Source: an uncultured Nitrososphaeraceae archaeon (GTDB lineage Archaea > Thermoproteota > Nitrososphaeria > Nitrososphaerales > Nitrososphaeraceae). Taken from it: a stretch of 64,000 nt of DNA. Position numbers and translations under genes: made by a program. How positions within the stretch are numbered: the stretch's first letter is position 1; each line of letters starts with the position of its first letter. Positions 55,237 to 63,572 of this stretch are shown here, one piece after another. The stretch spans positions 1 through 64,000 of the forward strand of contig CAWIMJ010000034.1 of the NCBI GenBank assembly GCA_963837175.1, written 5' to 3'. Below the pieces are notes generated by a model that saw nothing but the letters and a program-made list of their open reading frames with translations, searched no databases and was not told the DNA's origin.

Positions 55237-55968
55237 CTAGGTCACCAGTGATGGCATCTCTTTCATATGTGTCTTGACTTTTTTCTTGTACTCTTGCTGC
55301 ATTGGTTGTTGTTCTTGTACTTGTTGTCCTTCTTGTAGTATTTCCTTGTTTAGTTGCTGTTCTGGTTTCAGTTCCTGCGGCTTTGGTTGTTGTTCTTGTA
55401 CTTGTTGTCCTTCTTGTAGTATTTCCTTGTTTAGTTGCTGTTCTGGTTTCAGTTCCTGCGGCTTTGGTTGTTGTTCTTGTACTTGTTGTCCTTCTTGTAG
55501 TATTTCCTTGTTTAGTTGCTGTTCTGGTTTCAGTTCCTGCGGCTTTGGTTGTTGTTCTTGCTGTTGTACTAGAACATCTACTCCTTCCGCACTTATTTCT
55601 TCAATTTTGTCAGTTCCTTCCCACACATACTGCCAACTACCTTTTCCTGCATCATAAATTCTAATGATTTTTAATGATGCTTCCTCATCTAGTTCTTTTA
55701 ATTTTATAGATGACGTGTTGAGTTCACCTACTGTTACAAATTCTTCATCTGTACTATTTTTAAGAGCTAGAATCTTTCCTGTATCGAAATGGAATTCAAT
55801 ACATCGATAAAGACCTTCTATTGGATCATTTCCGGTGGACTGAATATTAACACTGCCTATAGAGGGATAATCTAATGAGATCTTAGACCCTTCTGTTACT
55901 GTAGGCGCAGGTCTTCCTCCTTTCCTTTCATTTAGAAATTTAATGTGAAGTGTGGATTTAGATACCAT
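55237..55968 (-). CDS. Hypothetical protein with Q/E/P-rich repeat tail, last gene of the operon
   Basis: Starts 11 bp after the 55980 stop. Globular N-terminus followed by three 27-aa repeats. Confidence 0.75.
   Translation of the reverse strand: MVSKSTLHIKFLNERKGGRPAPTVTEGSKISLDYPSIGSVNIQSTGNDPIEGLYRCIEFHFDTGKILALKNSTDEEFVTVGELNTSSIKLKELDEEASLKIIRIYDAGKGSWQYVWEGTDKIEEISAEGVDVLVQQQEQQPKPQELKPEQQLNKEILQEGQQVQEQQPKPQELKPEQQLNKEILQEGQQVQEQQPKPQELKPEQQLNKEILQEGQQVQEQQPMQQEYKKKVKTHMKEMPSLVT
55302..55560. repeat. 81-nt coding tandem repeat x3
   Basis: Units start at 55302, 55383 and 55464 and encode EQQPKPQELKPEQQLNKEILQEGQQVQ. Confidence 0.92.
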
Positions 55969-55979
55969 TTATAATACCT

Positions 55980-56861
55980 CTATGTAGTTTGGGTTGGCAG
56001 AGGTCTACGTCTCTGGGTCAAGGCAGTCTGGAAGAAGTCTACACCGGTAACCTGATACCATGTGCTTGACAGCTCTTTGAAAAAGAGGGAATCATCGTAT
56101 AACGATGTTGCCGCCCTAATATTCCATTGCGTTTGCTCCACCCTGTTAAGGAATACTTCCATTCTTTTTGCGAGTATGAAAAGATACATAGACTCTTTTG
56201 CCACAGGCACTTTCAGTCTCTGTCCTAGTTCTATTAATCGTGAATTTCTTCCTTGTGACCGAATATTAAGCCTCTGAACTATAAATTTATCATTGTCCAA
56301 CCATTGAAGTAAATCCTGAAATGCAACGGCCCAATAGGAAGCTATATCTTCAATTTCATTGTAGGTTCGATTTATCAACATCTTTTGAAAATCATCTAAT
56401 AATTCGGCAAGAGCACTAGGATTTGATAATTTCTCAACGGTAATTTGCTTATCTAGTACTCCCTGGGCTATGTTAAGCATTATTGATTCAAAGGTCTTGT
56501 TAAATTGTCCATTATATGCTTGTACCCTTTCGAAATTATTTTCCTTGCCTCTAATGACGTATCCAAACATTCTCCAATATGCATTATATCTTAAGCGTTC
56601 TAGATCTAGATCTCGAGTGATCGATGACGATGGCATAGGAAAGATCAAATTTGCTGTCTCCTTTAGCCCTTCTATCAGATCACAATCGTCTTTTCTATTG
56701 AGCCTAAGAACATCATCCGAAATAAAAAATGACCTCAATAAGACTCTAAAAACTTCAACTATTCCAGTAGACTCAATAAAGTATGAGTAAATCAAATGTC
56801 GCCTATTAGAAGGGCATATAGCAGCATTATTAGTCGTTAACTGTGTATTGCTATAACTCAA
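55980..56861 (-). CDS. Uncharacterised helical protein of the operon
   Basis: HLIYSYFIEST...RYNAYWRMFG motifs, recalled from an uncharacterised bacterial family (needs a search). ATGA overlap with the upstream gene. Confidence 0.8.
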   Translation of the reverse strand: MSYSNTQLTTNNAAICPSNRRHLIYSYFIESTGIVEVFRVLLRSFFISDDVLRLNRKDDCDLIEGLKETANLIFPMPSSSITRDLDLERLRYNAYWRMFGYVIRGKENNFERVQAYNGQFNKTFESIMLNIAQGVLDKQITVEKLSNPSALAELLDDFQKMLINRTYNEIEDIASYWAVAFQDLLQWLDNDKFIVQRLNIRSQGRNSRLIELGQRLKVPVAKESMYLFILAKRMEVFLNRVEQTQWNIRAATSLYDDSLFFKELSSTWYQVTGVDFFQTALTQRRRPLPTQTT

Positions 56862-60489: not shown

Positions 60490-60500
60490 GCCCCTTCTAA

Positions 60501-63500
60501 TTACAGTCTATATCCTGGTAATGGTTCTATAGGTGATAAAGTGATAGATGACAAGAGTCTTGGGAGATTCCAAGCCAGCGATGCAATTGTCAACCTTCGG
60601 AGATTGGATATAAAACCACTAGGCAGTATAAGGCTCGATGTAAGCGTTATCCCATCTGGGTGAGCAGATATGCTAGATATTCGTGCAGCTATCTTTCCAA
60701 TGCTTCTGTTCAAGCGCCTTATCACCAATCCAAGAATCAATGAAACTATTTGCTTTGATATCCATGAGGGTATTTTCAGTCTTCTCAGCTGCTTATACAA
60801 TATGTTGGATCCTAGCGTCTTTATAATATCAGATACTGACTTGTTAAGATCTGCAATCATTCTGGTTCTTGCCACGCTCTTAACACTACGTATCGTAAGA
60901 TCATTCAAATATATTCTGAGTTCAAGTCTAGTTCTATCAAATCGTATACTAATGTCATTGCTTCTCACAGCTCCCTTGTCTGGCAAAGGAGCAGAAGGGG
61001 TTTCCTGCATTGGCCTTCCTACAGGCCTTAAAATTTTTACGAAGCAATAGTTTCTCCAAGATGGATCATATCGCAGGATCGATGGCCTTAGTTTACGAAT
61101 TCTTCTGCGTCTTGATAAATATGGGTTATTTAGCAATAATCCTGCAGCAGTAGGAGTCAATGGTATTATTTGGTCTATATGCAAAGCACTCATTCCACCA
61201 ACATAGTCGCGAGCAATCATAGCCAGCCTAGTTCCGACCGGCAGACTTTGGAAAACACGTATACTCACACGAACAGGTGTTGTACCATCCCAACCTTGTG
61301 TCTTACGTAAGATATCAAGTAACGTAGTTCCTCCAAAGCTACGTACACGTGAGGCTAAAGTTGGATACAGGGTTAATTCGGATCTTTGAGATAAAACCTT
61401 GTATGTTTTTCGAGGAATCCACATAATATTAGCTGGGATTCTTCTTCTAGACACAAATTCTTCACGTAACGCTTGGCCTGGAACATTGTCTTTGATAGAT
61501 TCTAGAATAGACTCCTGAACATGAGCCTCCAATACTTGGTCTTCTCCTTCCAAAATGGATTCTGGCAGCGCTGCCTATCCTCTCGACTGATTCTGTCACA
61601 ATATTTGCTATCGTTTCTGCTACTAGTCTATTTTGATTGGGTAATTCTCTTGGGTTTTCTAAAGAGAGTAATCGAAGACCAGCATCTGCAATAACGCGGC
61701 TGAGGGGATTAGCAAAATTCTGGCCGATAAGTGGTTTTAATAACTTAGCAACAAGTTTCGCAAGAAAACCCACTACCCGCTGTCTTCCAATGAGTCTTAT
61801 TCCTATTCTTAATACCGGAAGAAGAGCAGGAGCAAACTCCTGTGTAAGTCTTTGAAGATTAGGTGGATATTCGCTTACTAAACCATTAATAAAATTATTG
61901 CGAGCCTCATTTACGACAAGGGCTTCGTTTACACTTCCAACAAACTCCTCCTCCTCACTTTCCGCTTCAGGAGTATAATATTCTGGAGTAAAGCCTGAGG
62001 TCTGAGCTTCAGGAGTATAATATTCTGGAGTAAAGCCTGAGGTCTGAGCTTCAGGAGTATAATATTCTGGAGTAAAGCCTGAGGTCTGAGCTTCAGGAGT
62101 ATAATATTCTGGAGTAAAGCCTGAGGTCTGAGCTTCAGGAGTATAATATTCTGGAGTAAAGCCTGAGGTCTGAGCTTCAGGAGTATAATATTCTGGAGTA
62201 AAGCCTGAGGTCTGAGCTTCAGGAGTATAATATTCTGGAGTAAAGCCTGAGGTCTGAGCTTCAGGAGTATAATATTCTGGAGTAAAGCCTGAGGTCTGAG
62301 CTTCAGGAGTATAATATTCTGGACTAGCTTTCCATCTCTGCAAAGAGCTCTCTTTCAAAATCTCGTTCAAATTCATAGACCTGCTGGAATTCATGTCCAT
62401 GATATAGTTCTTCTTCCGCTTCACCAGTAAAGCTCTCATTATAGATATTCTCATCTTCATCTTCAAATTCTAGTTCTGTTTCATCCAGAGTTTCAGCACG
62501 CAATACGTTTGAACCGGTTTCTGCTGTTTCCAACTCGCTTTCAGATGGTGGCGTAGTAGGCGGTTGTTCTACTGGTGGTTGTTCTACTGGTGGTTGTTCT
62601 ACTGGTGGTTGTTCTACTGGTGGTTGTTCTACTGGTGGTTGTTCTACTGGTGGTTGTTCTACTGGTGGTTGTTCTACTGGTGGTTGTTCTACTGGTGGTT
62701 GTTGGTACTGGTGGTTGTCCATAACCAAGGGCTCCGAGCGCCTTCTGAGCTATAGCACGATATTGTGGTGGAATATATCGCAATCCTAATCTAAGCACTT
62801 TTCTCACTAGAGGTCTAATACGACGCCCAATTGTTCCAAGTATTCTTCTTAGAATCAACTTAACAGCAGCTGATCCTATCACACTCTTAGCAACACTAAT
62901 GCCCTTCCTTGCTAAACTGAGACCTTTCCCTAAAACTCTTTTTGCCTTTTTCAACCATTTACCCAGAAATTCCTCAGGCTGAACTGGTTGAAATGAGTCA
63001 ATGACACGTTTGGCAGCTTCGTATTCCATTTCAGGTTGTATGTTGGACTGAACATAATTAGAAAAACGTTCAAGCTCATTCTGAATATTTCTCACCGTTC
63101 CACCATAGGTTACTTCATAGAATTGATTGAACATATTCTCGAAATTAGGATTTCTGAGGACCTCTTCAAGCTCACCACCAGTTCCTGTTGTATGACTTAC
63201 ATAGTTAGTAAACTTTGATTCAGCTTCACTTGCCAGCTGTACAAGTGACTGTTCAAATTCATGATCATGTACTTGGTTAGAAAAGAGTTCGAATTCAAAT
63301 TCTCGATCTATCATCTGATATTCTTGTGCTTGTTGTTGTTGTTCTGTCTCACCTGTAGTTATCGACATATTTTCTGTACCAGTAAATGATTCATTGAAAG
63401 ATGGAGATGATGATTCTGCAGAAGATGAAGGGAAATCAGTTTCTAGTAGCTGTTGTTCTTGCTCAGATTCTCTGTAGGTTATTTTTTTAAATGGATAAAC

Positions 63501-63572
63501 CTCACTTTCAGCAGACTCAAAATATTCATTACTTCCATATCCGCCGCTTTGAAAACGGGATCCTCTTTCCAC
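60501..63572 (-). CDS. About 1020-aa protein with alternating acidic and cationic-amphipathic blocks, split into four ORFs by three +1 insertions
   Basis: Removing an extra base near 62705, 62330 and 61575 joins ORFs 63572, 62728, 62466 and 61553 (for example VERIAALPESILEGEDQV). Confidence 0.75.
61964..62323. repeat. 42-nt coding tandem repeat x8.5 (TPEYYTPEAQTSGF)
   Basis: Perfect units ttcaggagtataatattctggagtaaagcctgaggtctgagc. Confidence 0.95.
62562..62720. repeat. 15-nt coding tandem repeat x9-10 (PPVEQ)
   Basis: Units ggttgttctactggt. Confidence 0.95.

Follow-up and report, generated by a model that had tools for sequence, protein, structure and literature searches.

A widespread, unnamed gene module in bacteria and archaea in which a predicted zinc peptidase is genetically linked to leader-bearing enzymes

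Introduction

How might an archaeon mature and release large enzymes that carry no recognizable export signal? The question is raised by an operon on the minus strand (positions 55237-63572) of the 64,000-nucleotide stretch of DNA analyzed here, which we call the window (G000:C34:1-64000, G000 being the source genome). A reading made from the sequence alone had proposed that this operon encodes a particle or export route for enzymes addressed by an acidic N-terminal leader, and that a peptidase removes the leader. We find that the locus is one archaeal copy of a widespread, unnamed four-part module made up of a large core protein (A), a putative peptidase (B), a small variable protein and an all-alpha core protein (F). 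The best explanation, to which we would give somewhat less than an even chance, is that the module is a leader-addressed maturation and release system for signal-less antibacterial enzymes, its cleavage and export steps being inferred. The narrower claim, that the module functionally serves leader-tagged enzymes, can be made with considerably more confidence.

Zoocin A homologues in archaea have been discussed before, and that study gives a known signal peptide for only 32% (67 of 210) of archaeal peptidoglycan hydrolase homologues, leaves the exit of the others open, and suggests contractile injection systems for hydrolases without a signal peptide (PMC12352652).

Results

A module of fixed gene order is shared by bacteria and archaea

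Taking one genome per species, we collected 339 stretches that fit the gene pattern, found a B relative encoded in 289 of them and kept 80 loci. Clustering of all open reading frames (ORFs) recovered A and B in every one of these loci and F in 74. The trio that the sequence-only reading had described for bacteria (a Glu-rich large protein, an HEXXH protein and a protein with HLIY..RNAY.RMFG motifs) is co-conserved across phyla. The order is fixed: a regulator, where present, is followed by A (∼820 amino acids (aa)), B (∼420 aa), a small non-conserved ORF, F (∼400 aa) and a large variable protein of 400-2000 aa, termed the effector below. Carriers belong to the Bacteroidota, Pseudomonadota, Actinomycetota, Acidobacteriota, Myxococcota, Gemmatimonadota, Nitrospirota and other phyla, and include Methanosarcina, so that every kind of cell envelope is represented. 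Culturable examples are Chitinophaga alhagiae, Aquimarina sp. AU474, Dyadobacter sp. BE34, Nitrosococcus oceani and Methanosarcina thermophila.

Regulator genes near the module form a GerE/LuxR cluster (33 loci) and a BTAD cluster (12 loci), and LytTR response regulators occur in 5 loci. All three are kinds of regulator that govern antibiotic or bacteriocin production, and they fit the production of a weapon. The loci have no conserved gene for an ATPase or a channel, an ATP-binding cassette (ABC) ATPase cluster being present in only 9 of 80, and no known secretion component was found in them. Seven actinomycetotal loci (L027, L029, L046, L052, L058, L066 and L067) have an extra conserved gene of ∼570-660 aa just upstream of A, with a weak match to Peptidase_M1 (E = 6e-6, below the cut-off) and BTAD regulators nearby.

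The archaeal operon

ORFs were found on the minus strand where the sequence-only reading had placed its genes. In the order of transcription they are gene A (60501-63572; 1023 aa after three indel changes, as supported by the family profile and by contigs of other sequencing runs), gene B (59182-60489; 435 aa, a predicted zinc metallopeptidase of an unnamed family with HECGH encoded at 59869-59883), a leader-only ORF (58775-58996; 73 aa) that overlaps the start of D by 4 nucleotides (nt), D (58314-58778) and E (56858-58300), gene F (55980-56861; 293 aa, with HLIY... and RRNAY.RMFG motifs) and gene G (55237-55968; 243 aa, with an 81-nt repeat in 3.3 copies). Intergenic gaps along this series are 11, 185, -4, 13, -4 and 11 nt. 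Seven genes had been claimed; the true gene count is six, since D and E (together 56858-58778) correspond to a single protein of 623-635 aa in relatives.

A crude test combining hydropathy and regular expressions detected no N-terminal hydrophobic or Tat-like signal in any protein of the window, which agrees with the earlier statement that the operon proteins lack Sec and Tat signals.

Core protein and enzymes begin with a common leader motif

The lineage motif of the window, [YS]PF[KR][KI]I.Y followed by a Glu-rich stretch, was searched for in the whole 3.8-Mb genome and lies in real ORFs only within the window: in A (63497), in the 73-aa ORF (58921), twice in a protein of 374 aa (53006 and 53117) and in a protein of 562 aa (44167). 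The remaining four of nine genome matches fall in frames of 13-51 aa. The claim that the leader recurs elsewhere in the window is borne out by the 374-aa protein (52943-54067) and the 562-aa protein (42698-44386).

Within the operon the leader has been copied. A 229-bp segment (copy 1, 63383-63611, minus strand) comprises 39 bp upstream of the GTG start of A together with its first 63 codons, YPFKKITY being encoded at 63474-63497. Copy 2 (58807-59035) is 96.5% identical and supplies the 5' part of the 73-aa ORF, so that a gene for a leader-only peptide, as read earlier, is indeed present; the genome contains only these two copies. On an independent contig (L082), whose B is 84% identical, B is likewise followed by a leader-only ORF, of 77 aa, which overlaps a fused D/E gene by 4 nt. 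The small gene between B and F of other loci was considered as a counterpart of the 73-aa ORF and rejected, as it is non-conserved and has no leader; KD19 (hydropathy over 19 residues) reaches 1.6 in only 2 of 50 such ORFs. The duplicated upstream 39 bp (59000-59035 and 63576-63611) contain an ATATA stretch ∼27 nt before both GTG starts. This could be an archaeal TATA box, which would give leaderless transcripts from two identical promoters.

A related pattern is found in the wider family. Effector N termini have one or two [ST]PF motifs and then a very acidic stretch. At least one [STN]P[FYW] occurs within the first 150 residues in 42 of 57 effectors versus 53 of 623 other ORFs of at least 300 aa in the same loci, and at least two occur in 28 of 57 versus 8 of 623, with a spacing of ∼26-27 residues; several of the 8 twin-motif exceptions are further cargo-like proteins adjoining the operon. 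A proteins start alike, with ...ESPFL..., ∼27 residues, ...SPFxSxYE... and then ELxDEEFDEAL. A leader profile proved specific: at E ≤ 1e-3 it matched 58 of 77 A proteins and 14 of 57 effectors. Besides these it matched 4 ORFs, which we take for effectors whose start was miscalled or which the end of a contig truncates. Among 151 genomes of one family, B is present in 6, and the leader profile matched in 2 genomes, both B-positive, and in 0 of 145 B-negative genomes.

The variable downstream proteins are mostly lytic enzymes

Directly 3' of F we called 57 downstream proteins and scanned 50 of them for Pfam families. PG_binding_1 was found in 9, Peptidase_M15_4 in 6, and VanY, M15_3, M15_2, DUF2272 and Glucosaminidase in 5 each; PLD, Amidase_2 and SLT follow with 3 each, and amino oxidase, PhoD, M23, Trypsin_2, Phage_lysozyme2 and T6SS_HCP with 2 each. 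The Methanosarcina effector contains DUF2272, PG_binding_1 and SLT domains. Judged from these domains, peptidoglycan hydrolases, phospholipases, proteases and oxidases make up most of the downstream enzymes. No N-terminal hydrophobic segment was detected in any of the 57 effectors by a KD window test. The earlier statement that the trio stands near enzymes with Glu-rich N termini is matched by this adjoining cargo, mainly cell-wall hydrolases, with its acidic N termini and common leader. One downstream protein, of 2008 aa, from a metagenome-assembled genome of Bacteroidia (L044:12929-18955), has an ESPF start and ends in a type VI secretion system (T6SS) Hcp domain (E = 1.4e-29).

In the window, the leader-bearing cargo candidates lie outside the operon. 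The 374-aa protein (52943-54067, plus strand) starts with a twin motif, YYPFNKITY and TFPFKKINY, and has no Pfam family. Its catalytic part is 27-38% identical to the C-terminal domains of five downstream effectors and to one further ORF in other loci. A domain of ∼230 aa that lacks a Pfam family forms the body of the 374-aa protein and recurs in L073:12878-18352 (residues 1239-1474) and in five other loci; it is probably an unnamed catalytic domain. The 374-aa protein may be SleB-like, a label without Pfam support. The PhoD-like leader protein (41578-44386, minus strand) is spread over two frames, 42698-44386 (562 aa, with EPF, ESPF, NPF and SPFRIIQY motifs) and 41578-42798. Its 562-aa part matches the L014 effector (E = 1.4e-7), which carries PhoD, DUF7800 and Trypsin_2. 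An Amidase_2-like protein (50682-51779, minus strand; Amidase_2 E = 3.9e-4, below the cut-off) also consists of two frames, 51408-51779 and 50682-51392, and shares 41% identity with a 748-aa protein of L074 that has a leader and adjoins the operon.

Gene B is a predicted zinc peptidase

The HEXXH motif announced for the second gene is present as HECGH at residues 203-207 of B. His-203, Glu-204 and His-207 are invariant in 15 of 15 sequences, with equivalent columns in 40 of 40, and neither alignment varies at the downstream Ser-245, Glu-246 and Asp-250 (SEIAAD, an ExxxD motif). A GDPHP motif with a further conserved His is invariant as well. HExxH...ExxxD is presumably a zinc site of the thermolysin/neprilysin (gluzincin) type, in which we take the Glu of ExxxD to be the third zinc ligand. 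Conservation thus predicts that B is a zinc peptidase of this type. Like the gluzincins (thermolysin, neprilysin of family M13, and M3), B has the invariant HExxH together with ExxxD downstream of it and one more conserved His; unlike them, it has no match to a Pfam peptidase family or a chain in the Protein Data Bank (PDB). In the ESM Atlas the nearest named clusters are Peptidase_U49, which we take to be the Lit family, and M48, at 0.77 only, a weak lead.

Of the 8000 candidates scored, at least 1056 are related to B at E ≤ 0.001. The source names listed for them are all "hypothetical protein" or "uncharacterized protein", and they lack Pfam domains. Scanning metagenomes with the B of the window yielded only 3 loci. 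We rejected a phage or plasmid element: B has 0 matches in 50,697 phage records, and on megaplasmids only five distant ones (25-31% identity).

Gene A is one gene with alternating acidic and cationic regions

In the assembly A appears as four frames (62541-63572, 62324-62728, 61462-62466 and 60501-61553, minus strand). A profile built from 74 A homologues matches three of them in order (profile positions 13-253, 296-426 and 425-761), which identifies A as one gene broken three times in the assembly. Contigs of four public runs over this stretch have indels within A only at the three break points: one base is absent at 62704 in contigs of X1, X2 and the RNA run X15, an extra AG stands behind 62325 in the X1 contig, and one base is absent at 61574 in the X2 contig. 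With these three changes a single ORF of 1023 aa extends from its GTG start (63572) to its stop codon (60501), as expected of the first protein, which had been read as roughly 1000 aa long, and matches profile positions 14-253 and 296-758 (score 311). Since X1 may be the sample of origin, the breaks are either assembly errors or a strain variant; an intact gene exists regardless. The first lies within a 15-nt tandem repeat (62562-62718, minus strand; 10.4 copies, QPPVE units) and the second at the edge of a 42-nt tandem repeat (61964-62323, minus strand; 8.6 copies, TPEYYTPEAQTSGF units). A 760-aa A of a relative (79% identical) reads through the last two break points, and the 897-aa A of a more distant relative is complete and begins with ETPF and ESPF motifs. 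Contigs from a soil RNA library span parts of A, D and E, with DNA carry-over possible.

In A the disordered leader is followed by an acidic module and cationic amphipathic helices. Repeats come next, then another acidic module and another helix region, which is cationic/hydrophobic, and an alpha/beta domain forms the C terminus, the charge changing from acidic to strongly cationic, back to acidic and then to a hydrophobic-cationic helix region. The window's A has 50 cationic amphipathic windows, whereas its 200 shuffles average 1.0 and have 13 at most, and the number exceeds all 200 shuffles in three of four A proteins tested.

An AlphaFold2 (AF2) model of the A homologue from locus L018 has a predicted local distance difference test score (pLDDT) of 74.5. 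Residues 1-46 are disordered (pLDDT <50), residues 48-443 are helical, and a better-defined alpha/beta domain comprises residues 450-785. Against the PDB the best Foldseek hit has an E-value of 0.12; the C-terminal domain was barely probed by this search with a 785-residue model, and we make no claim of a novel fold. VIA-align gave a best Z of 6.7 (r.m.s.d. 4.6, 101 aligned residues) over a helical stretch, and the viral structures of BFVD yielded no match (best E = 0.13).

F and the sub-lineage-specific genes

The window's F matches its family profile over positions 73-356 of 385. The AF2 model of F (pLDDT 92.4) contains 13 helices and matches no solved structure in the PDB, either by Foldseek (best E = 0.14) or in a wide VIA-align search (best Z = 4.8, r.m.s.d. 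8.6, 107 aligned residues). F has invariant polar residues (His, Glu, Tyr, Arg, Trp and Glu) that would suit an enzyme or a binding site. In a set of 1.84 billion representative proteins, 205 are related to it at E ≤ 0.001. Its nearest ESM Atlas clusters are Peptidase_M13_N (0.86-0.87, few shared features (93-95)), which is a lead only towards a neprilysin-like (M13) two-domain peptidase split into B and F: the F model finds no M13 chain among its Foldseek or VIA-align matches.

D and E are fused in the relatives P0271 (90% identity), P0272 (71%) and L082. The break between them in the window affects several bases and does not stem from slippage in a homopolymer, and contigs of other runs hardly cover 58300-58316. 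Within E, at 57076-57095, the X2 contig skips 18 bases, which would be an in-frame length variant. D/E found no counterpart among the 80 loci from bacteria and archaea; the small sub-lineage of the window alone has D/E, G and the leader-only ORF. G occupies the position of the effector in other loci, yet has no leader and no relatives there.

Searches with A, B, D, E, F and G returned nothing above noise in Pfam, NCBIfam and PADLOC. None of nine proteins, four from L073 (A, B, F and the small protein) and five from the window (B, D, E, F and G), matched a family of PADLOC-DB 2.0 at E ≤ 0.01.

Host and genomic setting

G000 comprises 3.8 Mb in 58 contigs, has 34% G+C and is 91% complete. Genes for an archaeal AmoA (E = 2.7e-118, with no match in any of 14 control genomes) and a full-length archaeal small-subunit rRNA identify the host as an ammonia-oxidizing archaeon and not a bacterium. 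DNA near-identical to the window is present in soil metagenomes of several studies. B was found in G000 alone among 41 relatives, and alone among 401 sampled genomes of the phylum, and the lineage has therefore acquired the module horizontally.

Stop-to-stop frames of at least 150 aa cover 54% of G000, a low proportion, and the window does not stand out from the rest. Indels are not pervasive in the assembly, since two large genes for aminoacyl-tRNA synthetases are uninterrupted over 1056 and 1070 aa. Split-looking genes outside the operon, each of two adjacent or overlapping frames, were seen at 24902-26711, 37879-38915, 41578-44386 and 50682-51779; they may be assembly indels, because the three breaks of A vanish in contigs of other runs.

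Positions 1-54000 of the window resemble an arsenal island. They encode a tyrosinase (352-1311), an endonuclease/exonuclease/phosphatase fragment (4120-4800), a GMC oxidoreductase (12398-14995) whose C-terminal extension recurs as a separate 347-aa protein (15766-16809), a reprolysin-like metallopeptidase (22135-23862, match below the cut-off), two poly-gamma-glutamate-hydrolase-like genes (29669-30178 and 37879-38915) and a Cys-rich repeat protein (36611-37381). By eye, two adjoining ORFs (35527-36341) and one further ORF (2620-3027) look transposase-like, and an integrase-like gene (39044-39964) weakly matches Archaeal phage integrase (E = 5.9e-5, below the cut-off); such genes fit a horizontally acquired island.

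Discussion

A proposed leader-addressed maturation and release system as the best explanation

The earlier interpretation is supported in part, namely in the co-conservation of the core genes and in their linkage to leader-bearing enzymes. Under the best explanation, B, possibly together with F, would recognize the leader and cut off the acidic pro-region. Loss of the acidic pro-regions would turn the enzymes active and unmask the cationic amphipathic helices of A, which would then breach or cross the membrane of the producer, either permeabilizing the producer (possibly only some cells) or forming a conduit. The enzymes would exit without Sec, Tat or an ATPase and attack bacterial peptidoglycan and membranes. 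In colicin release, too, only some cells of the producer are permeabilized. The envelopes of the ammonia-oxidizing archaeon and of Methanosarcina are not known to contain murein, so the archaeal hosts argue for antagonism over self-lysis, with murein hydrolases aimed at bacteria. A bolder form of the proposal, in which A, B and F with new core folds make up a self-contained, ATPase-free and envelope-independent maturation and release route for large signal-less enzymes with a twin-[ST]PF acidic leader, which bacteria of many phyla share and archaea acquired as an antibacterial weapon, is possible if doubtful.

Several observations weigh against a maturation and release system. B matches no Pfam or NCBIfam family, no Pfam family being found for 40 members even at E-values up to 10, and its profile retrieves only chance coiled-coil matches and no peptidase from the PDB sequences. 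No structural prediction ties B or F to the leader: predicted as a complex, B, F and residues 1-75 of A (L018 set) scored 0.00 against a mark of 0.32, a result that counts neither way. As called, 15 of 57 effectors have no motif at all, some of them with doubtful start codons. When the first 120 residues of A and of the effector from the same locus were compared, 0 of 57 pairs exceeded z = 5, and the common leader is consequently a short motif only, not a domain. The sequence-only expectation that leader-bearing enzymes go with operon genomes stands in so far as the profile matched only B-positive genomes; it falls short in that only two of six such genomes were matched, a comparison of little power among related genomes that are not independent. 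The A protein of L018 is the one of four that does not exceed its shuffles in amphipathic windows, and most A proteins have no clear transmembrane segment (maximum KD19 ≥ 1.6 in 30 of 84). No immunity gene was identified, clustering having given no conserved family after the effector, with small unique ORFs left unexamined. Finally, the window's copy may be partly defunct, as D|E and the PhoD-like and Amidase_2-like genes are still split.

Alternative explanations

It is unlikely, in our estimate, that A, B and F form a cytoplasmic module for holding, quality control or immunity, which silences or degrades the leader-tagged pro-enzymes, while the enzymes are exported by an unlinked route such as a T6SS, a type VII secretion system (T7SS), vesicles or cell death. 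The lack of a conserved ATPase or channel gene would fit such a module, as would the Hcp domain of the L044 effector and the tag common to A and the cargo, which a decoy or a chaperone might also bear. The carriers, however, span Gram-negative and Gram-positive bacteria and archaea, which have no specialized secretion system in common. A search for the phage-sheath gene (PF04984) gave 0 matches in the 91% complete G000, and among five other carriers one match above the cut-off, one below and none in three; we therefore rejected cargo of a contractile injection system.

That the locus is a self-lysis or abortive-infection cassette, the enzymes being endolysins that act on the producer's own wall, A a holin-like protein and B the trigger protease, seems improbable. 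Endolysin-type domains without signal peptides, the cationic amphipathic helices of A and the weak resemblance of B to Peptidase_U49 and M48 would fit such a cassette. Against it stand the archaeal carriers, Methanosarcina and the ammonia oxidizer, which murein hydrolases cannot lyse if they have no murein; the absence of PADLOC matches for A, B and F and of B from the phage records; and a cargo that also includes oxidases, PhoD-like phosphatases and trypsin-like proteases.

We give equally little credence to A as the main weapon, a pro-toxin whose acidic pro-region masks membrane-active helices and which B and F mature, the hydrolases opening the target wall. Acidic modules do alternate with cationic amphipathic helices in A, no other gene accompanies B as constantly (80 of 80 loci), and A has the same leader as the enzymes. 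Yet A is conserved over its whole length and not polymorphic, and the role of its large C-terminal alpha/beta domain would be left unexplained; this proposal overlaps the release system favored here and does not exclude it.

Least credible is a decaying, functionless remnant of a horizontally acquired island, for which the restriction of B to G000, the integrase-like and transposase-like genes and the split D|E, PhoD-like and Amidase_2-like genes may be cited, since near-identical contigs from other soil runs of several studies lack the three breaks of A, B and F are intact, soil RNA library contigs lie over parts of A, D and E (carry-over of DNA being possible), and the two large housekeeping frames are unbroken.

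Comparison with known systems

The leader-addressed release system proposed here resembles four known kinds of system. In bacteriocin systems and those of ribosomally synthesized and post-translationally modified peptides (RiPPs), double-glycine leaders are cut by ABC transporters with a C39 domain, or leaders are removed by LanP-type proteases. The module likewise has a conserved N-terminal cargo leader, a linked protease gene and LuxR, LytTR or SARP regulators nearby; it differs in that its cargo consists of multi-domain enzymes of 400-2000 aa and not of peptides, its putative protease is an unnamed HExxH protein, no transporter is conserved, and the leader is also present on its largest core protein. 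Pro-lysostaphin, zoocin A and other bacteriolysins (class III bacteriocins) are secreted peptidoglycan hydrolases directed at other bacteria, and in lysostaphin an acidic repeat pro-region is removed by a protease. The module's cargo has M23, M15 and PG-binding domains in common with them; unlike bacteriolysins, which have Sec or Tat signal peptides, its effectors lack a hydrophobic N terminus (0 of 57) and are accompanied by a module of three or four genes.

With polymorphic toxins and the cargo of T6SS or of extracellular contractile injection systems and Photorhabdus virulence cassettes (eCIS/PVC), the module shares a constant N-terminal address joined to variable C-terminal enzyme domains, sometimes several cargo genes per locus and, in one effector, a terminal Hcp domain. 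It differs from T6SS and eCIS/PVC in that G000 and three of five other carriers have no sheath gene and the loci no known secretion component, and from polymorphic toxins in that no immunity gene was identified. As in phage holin-endolysin cassettes, signal-less murein hydrolases adjoin a protein with membrane-active-looking helices, but phage context is missing, A is ∼800-1000 aa long and mostly without a transmembrane segment, and archaeal hosts are included. The module is thus set apart from all four by the lack of a transporter, a signal peptide, a known secretion apparatus and a phage context, respectively.

No characterized system was matched in our family, fold or literature searches, in keeping with the sequence-only view of the genes as uncharacterized. 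Full-text literature searches found no description of the module, which is not proof of absence, and no paper for the locus tag Noc_2192. We regard the module as a new system with a proposed mechanism, of which a description may nevertheless exist elsewhere.

Many antibacterial enzymes have no known export signal, and the module is a testable candidate for filling part of this gap, offering a short N-terminal address, a linked putative peptidase and two conserved proteins without detectable known relatives. If the proposal is true, the module would represent a new kind of protein-release system, and its leader would serve as a sequence tag by which new lytic enzymes can be found in genomes. 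It would also be evidence that ammonia-oxidizing archaea in soil fight bacteria.

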